From positions 107,626 to 171,625 of the IMG/VR virus record IMGVR_UViG_3300043427_001127: DNA of 64,000 bases. One strand, given 5' to 3'. The notes beneath the pieces are model-generated. The model had not been told where the DNA came from and did no database searches. It saw nothing but the letters and a program-made list of their open reading frames with translations. How positions within the stretch are numbered: position 1 is the first letter of the stretch; each line of letters opens with the position of its first letter. A program made the translations under genes and the position numbers. The stretch comes from a virus. Of this stretch, positions 6,706 through 8,828 are shown one piece after another.

Positions 6706-7068
6706 GACACGGATGGTCTATAACAGAACTGGTGGAGTCAAGTTACCCTTTGAATGCTATGAACTTTCGTATTGTTGAGCAACTAGATAATAATGATGAA
6801 GTCATTACTTACTTTCAAGTTCATGAACTTGACAATGGTTATCATTGGGAGTATGATGGTGAGCAACATGGTCCTTTTGGGAACATGCAAGATGCAGTAG
6901 ATTCTGCATATGACAACTTAATACCTGTCTCGGAATGACACTAAACTTGCCCTGGTCGGGTGAACCCCCTTCTGGTTTCTTGTTTTCCCATTAAAAAACA
7001 AGTGGTGCGGATGGGACTCTCTCCCGCCCAGTTTCCTGCCTCTGGTCAAAGGGCAGGTGGCGAGCCGA
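6705..7068 (+). ncRNA. manA/wcaG-type modular cyanophage RNA (hairpin/pseudoknot modules followed by UGGYG), interrupted by an ORF
   Basis: Modules at 6705-6748, 6926-6969, 6973-7027, 7028-7068; two H-type pseudoknots; TGGTG/TGGCG motifs. Confidence 0.65.
6759..6938 (+). CDS. Acidic hypothetical protein lying between RNA modules
   Basis: MNFRIVEQLDNNDEV...GPFGNMQDAVDSAY; 59 aa. Confidence 0.6.
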   Translation: MNFRIVEQLDNNDEVITYFQVHELDNGYHWEYDGEQHGPFGNMQDAVDSAYDNLIPVSE

Positions 7069-7079
7069 GCAACGGGGGG

Positions 7080-8272: not shown

Positions 8273-8312
8273 TATTGTATAATAGACTACAGTTGTAGAT
8301 AAATATATACAA

Positions 8313-8526
8313 TACGTTCATCCCTTTGGGACGGAAGTAAGCCGACTCGGAACGGATCGTTCATCTATGGAAGCACTCATTCTAACCTGCTTGCAGGCAC
8401 AACTGATTGCCACCCGAGTTGCTGCGGCAGACATGCCTAAGCAAACTCGCAACGATCTCATATGGGAGGTCAAACAGATCTCTCCTAAGGAGTGCAAGAT
8501 AGACGCAAAAGCCGACTGAAGGAACG
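8313..8526 (+). ncRNA. Tandem glnA-type glutamine riboswitch aptamers (8315-8354 and 8358-8526)
   Basis: Two copies of CGTTCATC..stem..GACG(G/C)AA..GCCGAC...GGAACG; DUF4278-like gene downstream. Confidence 0.8.
8367..8519 (+). CDS. 50-aa ORF nested in second riboswitch aptamer
   Basis: MEALILTCLQAQLIATRVAAADMPKQTRNDLIWEVKQISPKECKIDAKAD. Confidence 0.55.
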   Translation: MEALILTCLQAQLIATRVAAADMPKQTRNDLIWEVKQISPKECKIDAKAD

Positions 8527-8558
8527 CTCTTTAACCTAAAAAACTAAGGAGAAACCTA

Positions 8559-8717
8559 ATGTCACAAGCAACCTACAGAGGTTGTCAGTACAACACTGAC
8601 GTACCTAAGCAAGAATATCAGCGTTGGTATTCACAAACTCATGCACCAGCACATCCACAGAATACATATCGTGGTGTTGCCTACCGTCCTTGTAAGAACT
8701 CGGAGGTAGCACAATGA
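8559..8717 (+). CDS. DUF4278-like protein
   Basis: Duplicated TYRG..Y motif (ATYRGCQY ... NTYRGVAY); AAGGAG RBS; riboswitch upstream. Confidence 0.8.
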   Translation: MSQATYRGCQYNTDVPKQEYQRWYSQTHAPAHPQNTYRGVAYRPCKNSEVAQ

Positions 8718-8800
8718 ACTGGTTGAATCTAATCCGTAGACAGATTGAAAAACAAAAGAGACTAGAGATTGCCCAATATCATATGGCAACTCTCGGATAA
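8714..8800 (+). CDS. 28-aa peptide
   Basis: MNWLNLIRRQIEKQKRLEIAQYHMATLG; GGAGG RBS, ATGA overlap. Confidence 0.6.
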   Translation: MNWLNLIRRQIEKQKRLEIAQYHMATLG

Positions 8801-8803
8801 AGC

Positions 8804-8828
8804 AAAGGGGGCATATGCCCCCTTTTTT
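8804..8828. terminator. Bidirectional rho-independent terminator
   Basis: AAAGGGGGC-ATAT-GCCCCCTTTTTT between convergent genes. Confidence 0.85.

Follow-up and report, generated by a model that had tools for sequence, protein, structure and literature searches.

The DNA analyzed here is a 64,000-nucleotide stretch (the window; positions 107,626 to 171,625 of the IMG/VR virus record IMGVR_UViG_3300043427_001127, with all coordinates below counted from its first letter) of the genome of a freshwater T4-like cyanophage (Kyanoviridae). Its nearest matches among database records, DSL-LC03, DSL-LC02, and S-SRM01, are Synechococcus phages from freshwater, and the DNA of the window itself was detected in freshwater metagenomes. 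The window contains 16 tRNA genes and one wcaG RNA, the latter at 6971-7071 (92.9 bits). The region 8313-8551 is probably the leader of a small phage operon in which a microprotein gene nested within the leader is followed by a gene for a putative DUF4278 (IF17-like) protein, a 28-aa ORF, and a terminator (Table 1). About 25-35 nt upstream of the riboswitch described below, an NtcA-like box and a TATAAT hexamer can be recognized; many relatives differ in this region and carry TATAAT within a short inverted repeat immediately before CGUUCA. A scan of this part of the window with the sigma-70 consensus did not find a full promoter. Contigs from the RNA libraries of two studies cover 8287-8524 and 8329-8553; these are compatible with transcription of the leader but do not prove it, because DNA carry-over is possible. 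The 5' ends, strand, and expression level are not readable from such contigs.

Table 1. Features of the leader and of the operon that it precedes (window coordinates)
Feature	Position	Strand	Basis
Putative promoter elements: GTA-N8-TAC (NtcA-like) box overlapping TATAAT (8278-8283)	8277-8290	+	read from sequence
Outer P1, 5' strand CGUUC (partner 8522-8526)	8315-8319	+	unconstrained MFE fold of 8313-8530
Unit 1 P2 hairpin UCCC-UUU-GGGA, compact in the window phage	8321-8331	+	Rfam alignment
Unit 1 J2/3 CGGAAGUA: G8333 = G22, G8334 = linchpin base, AGUA = half of loop E	8332-8339	+	
Shared P3, 5' strand AGCCGACU (partner 8510-8517)	8340-8347	+	covariation
Inner P1' hairpin GAACG-GAU-CGUUC (8350-54/8358-62)	8350-8362	+	RNAfold and RNAalifold predictions
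Unit 2 P2, 5' strand UCUAU (partner 8499-8503)	8364-8368	+	pairing and covariation
Nested gene (phrog_504/T4-GC 430), 50 aa, two-Cys helical-hairpin microprotein	8367-8519	+	
Unit 2 P2, 3' strand AUAGA, within codons 45-46 of the nested ORF	8499-8503	+	
Unit 2 J2/3 CGCAAA: G8505 = G22', C8506 = inner linchpin base, without AGUA	8504-8509	+	
Shared P3, 3' strand AGCCGACU; U8517 = first base of the stop codon	8510-8517	+	covariation
J3/1 GAAG, the other half of loop E; G8518 and A8519 are the last two bases of TGA	8518-8521	+	
Outer P1, 3' strand GAACG	8522-8526	+	MFE fold
Expression platform: C8527 followed by UCUUUA (anti-SD), pairing with SD UAAGGAG (8545-8551)	8527-8551	+	MFE fold
Putative DUF4278 (IF17-like) gene, 52 aa	8559-8717	+	PF14105, E 3.3e-4; phrog_5049, E 2.9e-9
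28-aa ORF, basic, start overlapping the preceding stop (ATGA)	8714-8800	+	phrog_545, E 6.2e-6
Intrinsic terminator closing the operon	8804-8825	+	

The leader consists of two units with the sequence elements of glutamine riboswitches. Unit 1 (8315-8354) is indeed the compact aptamer that had been recognized from the sequence alone in the earlier note: cmscan matches it to the Rfam Glutamine family RF01739 (8313-8358, 34.3 bits, E 6.7e-6), slightly below the gathering score of 35. The same Rfam check, proposed for the tandem as a whole, returned nothing for unit 2, either at the gathering threshold or at E<=10; this is expected, because 130 nt split the aptamer, and is not counter-evidence. The 5' flank of unit 2, CGTTCATCTAT (CGUUCAUCUAU), occupies 8358-8368, and its 3' flank, ATAGACGCAAAAGCCGACTGAAGGAACG (AUAGACGCAAAAGCCGACUGAAGGAACG), occupies 8499-8526. 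The motifs CGUUCA, ACG, and GGAACG are present in each unit. The earlier reading of the flanks as glutamine-aptamer sequence is supported. In the known structures, glutamine rests on the C1:G59 pair and the G22>G2:C58 triple and is capped by the position 23-60 'linchpin' pair (PMC6698751, PMC11477058). The glutamine-contacting bases (C1:G59, G2:C58, and G22) are present in two cores, at 8315-16, 8525-26, and G8333 in one and at 8358-59, 8353-54, and G8505 in the other, and are invariant in 29/29 aligned rows.

As claimed in the earlier note, P2 of unit 2 (TCTAT/ATAGA in the DNA) encloses about 130 nt. The five pairs, U8364-A8503, C8365-G8502, U8366-A8501, A8367-U8500, and U8368-A8499, form a 5-bp stem (8364-68/8499-8503) around 130 nt. 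Among 133 distinct sequences, pairs 1-5 are 98-100% paired, with compensatory changes at pair 3 (C-G/U-A/U-G), pair 4 (C-G/A-U/U-A), and pair 5 (A-U/U-A/C-G), and the observed stem length was reached by 0 of 1000 shuffles. Judging from these comparisons, the enclosing stem is selected as RNA.

The ORF inside the stem agrees base for base with the one that had been described. Its start codon ATG (8367-8369) lies within the P2 stem, with the A and U of the codon shared with the stem, and its stop codon TGA (8517-8519), in the conserved 3' part, combines the last base of AGCCGACU with the GA of the GAAG junction. The ORF belongs to the phrog_504 family, annotated in many cyanomyoviruses as the 'T4-GC 430' cluster; the phrog_504 profile matches the window ORF with E 0.0022 and the homologs in P-SSM7 and P-RSM6 with 1.8e-19 and 3.1e-17, respectively. 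In a set of 17 members, synonymous sites are near saturation (pS 0.3-0.94 against pN 0.09-0.39), omega (dN/dS) is 0.13-0.35 where estimable, and the entropy of the codon positions decreases in the order 3>1>2. The two cysteines that had been pointed out in the ORF (C8 and C43) do not vary among 85 diverse members, and the window protein aligns with C8, C43, D46, and A47 of the family conserved; D46 and A47, the C-terminal DA motif, are encoded by the GACGCA of the aptamer. By these coding signatures, the nested ORF is a conserved protein-coding gene; the coding conservation in homologs, on the absence of which the earlier note would have abandoned its proposal, is present.

A profile search with the nested protein yielded 1421 protein clusters, none of which carries a name or a Pfam domain. 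The AlphaFold2 model is a confident helical hairpin (pLDDT 85.7; helices 8-20 and 25-37), and searches of Pfam, NCBIfam, PDB (with Foldseek), and the ESM Atlas returned nothing usable for the microprotein and no informative structural neighbor. RNAalifold found no conserved RNA structure inside the nested ORF. The sole Shine-Dalgarno (SD)-like sequence ahead of the nested ATG is the P1' loop region, with a weak GGAU 9 nt upstream. A leader-peptide ORF of the mgtL type does not fit: such peptides are little conserved, whereas the nested product is under purifying selection, has a confident fold, and is represented in 1421 clusters.

The layout is not specific to the window phage. A scan pattern that specified the RNA flanks only matched at least 120 viral contigs (116 unique sequences). 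Among the matches listed, an open ORF is present in 115/116 unique sequences, with the ATG 9-11 nt after the start of the pattern and, again in 115/116, an end exactly 7 nt before the end of the pattern, the stop falling at U(G/A)A-AGGAACG. The layout is far beyond chance. When the same pattern was applied to 185,579 species genomes, there were 26 matches; 22 of these are chance matches without the ORF or other features of the layout, and the remaining four are short, phage-like MAG contigs with all of them. These four MAGs (L200, L207, L211, and L224) are labeled Acetobacteraceae, Verrucomicrobiales, 'uncultured bacterium', and Euryarchaeota, and the contigs with such non-cyanobacterial labels are probably mis-binned cyanophage DNA. 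Of the isolate genomes retrieved, 16 carry the ORF, and in 16/16 it is bordered by these aptamer flanks. In the sample of tandem junctions, which is somewhat biased by the initial flank-pattern scan, ORF-bearing and compact second units occur at roughly 90 to 30. In S-SRM01 (L002:1571-1747), P3 pair 1 is C-G instead of A-U, which removes the usual UGA, and the nested ORF is five codons longer, with the stop within the anti-SD region.

Some phages also carry a gene in P2 of unit 1. In 27 units, including those of S-TIM4, P-SSM4, Syn2, and Syn19, this hairpin holds an ORF of 65-75 aa (L017:249-487 in Syn19, L011:251-486 in P-SSM4, L008:260-487 in S-TIM4, and 23 IMG/VR loci) that is intact in 26/27 and belongs to the family phrog_6471 (T4-GC 429/936). 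An hhalign comparison (probability 90%, E 1.5e-6) matches the two invariant cysteines of phrog_6471 to the pair in phrog_504, and the two families are probably paralogues. In P-SSM4 (upstream part of L011; NC_006884, 165010-165595), another RNA motif, taken from the alignment in file 79 of the 2010 supplement, ends right before the ORF-bearing first unit, so that two structured RNA elements appear to abut.

The earlier note had interpreted the leader as two tandem aptamers with the same flanks. This part of the proposal is not supported by the comparison of 132 tandem units, in which covariation places linchpin and P3 between the units; in addition, each unit of the window has only half of loop E. 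In the window, the linchpin bases at positions 23 and 60 are G and G in unit 1 and C and C in unit 2, and so neither unit pairs its own linchpin. In contrast, the position-23 base of unit 1 can pair with the position-60 base of unit 2 (as C:G or G:C) in 132/132 distinct tandem units, whereas within-unit pairing fits only 111/132 and 110/132. In the clade of the window, the G8334-C8527 pair is GC in 21 rows, CG in 8, and unpaired in 0; because close relatives differ, the linchpin switched several times within this clade.

The evidence from P3 is of the same kind. The segment of unit 1 that follows J2/3 is complementary to the segment of unit 2 that precedes GAAG in 41 distinct type pairs. Double changes that keep complementarity include AGUCG/CGACU, AGUCA/UGACU, AUUCG/CGAAU, AGCCGACA/UGCCGACU, AGCCGACG/CGCCGACU, and CGCCGACU/AGCCGACG, as well as G-C to A-U at pair 5; both sides change at pairs 1, 5, and 8. 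Such compensatory changes are seen between units only: several of them, for example AGCCGACA with UGCCGACU, would disrupt any within-unit hairpin but keep the between-unit duplex, and in marine units, where a within-unit P3 is impossible (AGUCGC alone), AGUCG and CGACU pair perfectly between units. Two mismatches inside the shared P3, C.A/A.C at 8342/8515 and 8345/8512, are conserved in many long-form units; in some units, A-U is found instead, and A.C is kept even in the different GGACGACG/CGCCGCCC type. These conserved mismatches may be protonated wobble pairs or a site of tertiary contact. Loop E is split as well, with AGUA in unit 1 only and GAAG in unit 2 only. Neither unit has a credible P3 or a full loop E of its own, since a within-unit P3 would be only 2 bp or absent, whereas the composite fold has both.

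We consider it fairly likely that the leader is one composite glutamine riboswitch and not two independent aptamers. On the evidence of sequence and covariation, a complete core of the glutamine-I type takes its 5' half from unit 1 and its 3' half from unit 2; it comprises the outer P1, P2(1), the J2/3 that contains G22, a loop E made of AGUA plus GAAG, and the linchpin G8334-C8527. A second, permuted core lies within P3 and consists of the P1' hairpin 8350-62, P2(2), and J2/3 CGCAAA. The simplest topology is nested: outer P1 (8315-19/8522-26), shared P3 (8340-47/8510-17), and inner hairpin (8350-54/8358-62). When 8313-8530 is folded without constraints, the MFE structure contains the outer P1, and the interlocked topology has an energy of -58.3 kcal/mol compared to -56.0 for separate aptamers. 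De novo RNAalifold predicted the inner hairpin but missed every long-range helix; these helices were assessed by pair counts on the stated structure. The strands of both P1 helices are invariant (P1' is paired in 29/29 rows), so that covariation does not separate the interlocked P1 from a pseudoknotted topology; the former is preferred on account of the linchpin, loop lengths, and folding energies. Likewise, because the inner linchpin candidate, C8506-G8355, never varies, the second glutamine site is only a candidate. Compact tandems that lack the ORF (S-CREM1 and ~30 IMG/VR contigs) follow the same pairing rules; therefore, the interlock belongs to the phage riboswitch as such, with the ORF added to the inner P2.

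The anti-SD/SD helix of the expression platform, CUCUUUA/UAAGGAG, starts at C8527, which is also the linchpin partner of G8334. Pairing of this predicted helix amounts to 80% in the clade, and 6 rows show a double change from UA to AU. In marine relatives the expression platforms are of other kinds and an anti-SD is not obvious; therefore, the switch may not work in the same direction in all clades. The match of the downstream gene to DUF4278 (PF14105) scores 21.4 bits, below the cut-off of 25.3, and the YRG repeats are present. The 28-aa ORF is also found in DSL-LC03, and a homologous ORF ('MNTLNLIR...') is the first gene after the riboswitch in S-CAM22, S-H9-2, Syn30, and Syn19.

In the mechanism that we propose, high glutamine would stabilize the composite fold, in which C8527 would be taken out of the anti-SD helix; this would free the SD of the DUF4278 gene, making the leader an ON switch. 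Glutamine should turn the IF17-like gene on because the arrangement is the one for which an ON switch has been proposed in gifB (PMC6212724). The same fold would bury the nested AUG in the P2(2) stem, together with the GGA-rich linker upstream, so that the microprotein would be made mainly at low glutamine. Ribosomes translating the nested gene would, for their part, open P2(2), J2/3(2), the P3 strand, and loop E. The earlier note had expected translation of the ORF and folding of aptamer 2 to be mutually exclusive. Because the ORF starts in the P2 stem and stops where the P3 strand meets loop E, ribosomes on it must unwind parts of the aptamer; therefore, translation and sensing would exclude each other. 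We infer that translation and folding are coupled on one RNA. Reciprocal expression of the two genes with translational feedback is the reading that we favor, tentatively. In its most specific form, a single strand-swapped RNA with two glutamine sites would act as a toggle, with the IF17-like gene turned on and the nested microprotein turned off by glutamine and with ribosomes on the nested gene feeding back by dismantling the sensor; this we regard as possible but doubtful.

Two independent tandem glutamine-I aptamers, the second of which tolerates a gene in its P2 loop without structural or regulatory coupling, would account for the three core motifs in each unit and for the near match of unit 1 alone to the Rfam cut-off, and tandem and triple arrangements are on record (PMC2864571, PMC10265488). 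We nevertheless consider this improbable in view of the G.G and C.C linchpins within the units of the window, the better fit between units (132/132) than within them (111 and 110/132), and the marine AGUCGC and AGCCGACA/UGCCGACU types, which are incompatible with P3 within units and paired between units. Moreover, the ATG invariably falls within the stem and the stop codon at loop E, unlike what would be expected of a free-floating insert. Far less probable still is that the 130-nt insert is a non-coding structured RNA or that unit 2 is a dead relic kept by the C-terminal residues of the ORF. The failure of cmscan to detect unit 2 and the coincidence of the last five codons with the aptamer core would fit such an origin. 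The insert, however, shows open frames and a coding signature and lacks conserved internal RNA structure, and, against a relic, the covariation includes bases outside the ORF (8364-66, C8527, and the strand 8340-47), with the same 3' core found in compact tandems that have no ORF.

A different kind of coupling, unlikely in our assessment but the main alternative to the favored reading, is positive: ribosomes finishing at UGA 8517-8519 would melt the anti-SD helix (8527-8551) and turn the DUF4278 gene on, in which case the nested gene would be partly a leader ORF and glutamine would mainly gate initiation at the nested AUG. In favor of this reading, the nested stop precedes the anti-SD by 8 nt and the next start codon by 40 nt, at a position that is fixed in 115/116 relatives among the matches listed; a ribosome at 8517-8519 would cover part of the anti-SD (8527-8533) and could activate the downstream gene, and the gene pair that follows is also coupled, via the ATGA overlap. 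Strong amino acid conservation shows, on the other hand, that the product itself matters; the DUF4278 gene has its own strong SD and the competition for C8527 that is typical of a direct glutamine ON switch; and the same gene is regulated by compact tandems that contain no ORF.

If the toggle, with glutamine turning the IF17-like gene on and the microprotein off, is true, one RNA would let the phage control two small effectors of the nitrogen metabolism of its host in opposite directions. The IF17-like protein and the two-Cys microprotein probably reprogram nitrogen assimilation of the host. Riboswitch aptamers are normally treated as non-coding; here, a hairpin is a protein gene whose start and stop lie in functional helices. 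Two assumptions are thus broken at once, in that the 'tandem' aptamers are, under the composite model, one interlocked fold and a hairpin of that fold is a gene, which makes the leader a natural system for studying the competition between ribosomes and ligand-dependent RNA folding. This glutamine sensor is widespread in cyanomyoviruses (at least 120 contigs), and standard models miss most of its occurrences, which suggests that Rfam RF01739 needs a composite model. Tandem glnA RNAs as such have been described before (PMC2864571, PMC10265488). The glnA alignment of 2010 includes second units with an ORF only as unaligned 3' flank; Klähn et al. did not treat phages; and a 2017 survey listed only two glutamine aptamers in cyanophage genomes and called phage riboswitch use rare (PMC5473149). 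Neither the nested gene nor the interlock was found described in the literature searched, the scope of which did not extend to Ames & Breaker 2011 and Ren et al. 2015.

Among known systems, the leader of Synechocystis gifB/IF17 (RF01739; PMC6212724; structure 5DDP in PMC6698751 and PMC11477058) has the same core bases, namely, CGUUCA, ACG with G22, and GGAACG. Also shared with the glutamine-I riboswitch are loop E (AGUA/GAA), the linchpin that caps P1, the base after P1 that starts the anti-SD, a downstream gene that is putatively DUF4278/IF17-like, and, likely, the translational ON logic. Unlike the glutamine-I riboswitch, the phage core appears to be built from two half-units, with P3 as a between-unit duplex and a permuted core inside P3; one hairpin, or both in some phages, encloses a conserved gene; and the element resides in phage genomes and falls short of the Rfam cut-off. 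Tandem riboswitches of the glnA and glycine types (PMC2864571, PMC10265488) similarly place two adjacent sensing units ahead of one gene. By analogy, two adjacent ligand-sensing units suggest a sharper response; in contrast to the tandem riboswitches, the phage units would exchange P1, P3, loop E, and linchpin strands and would not be separable domains docked by tertiary contacts. In the Salmonella mgtA leader with the mgtL ORF and in classical leader-peptide attenuators, the position of the ribosome decides the RNA fold, and a short ORF lies inside a sensing leader RNA, as it does in the phage leader. Leader-peptide ORFs sense how fast translation proceeds, and their products are little conserved as proteins, whereas the phage product belongs to a conserved family of folded two-Cys microproteins (1421 clusters). 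Finally, group I introns carry homing-endonuclease ORFs in peripheral loops, and the phage leader shares with them a protein gene looped out of a structured-RNA hairpin in a T4-like phage; unlike these introns, it involves neither splicing nor mobility, and the start and stop codons of its gene are built into functional helices.
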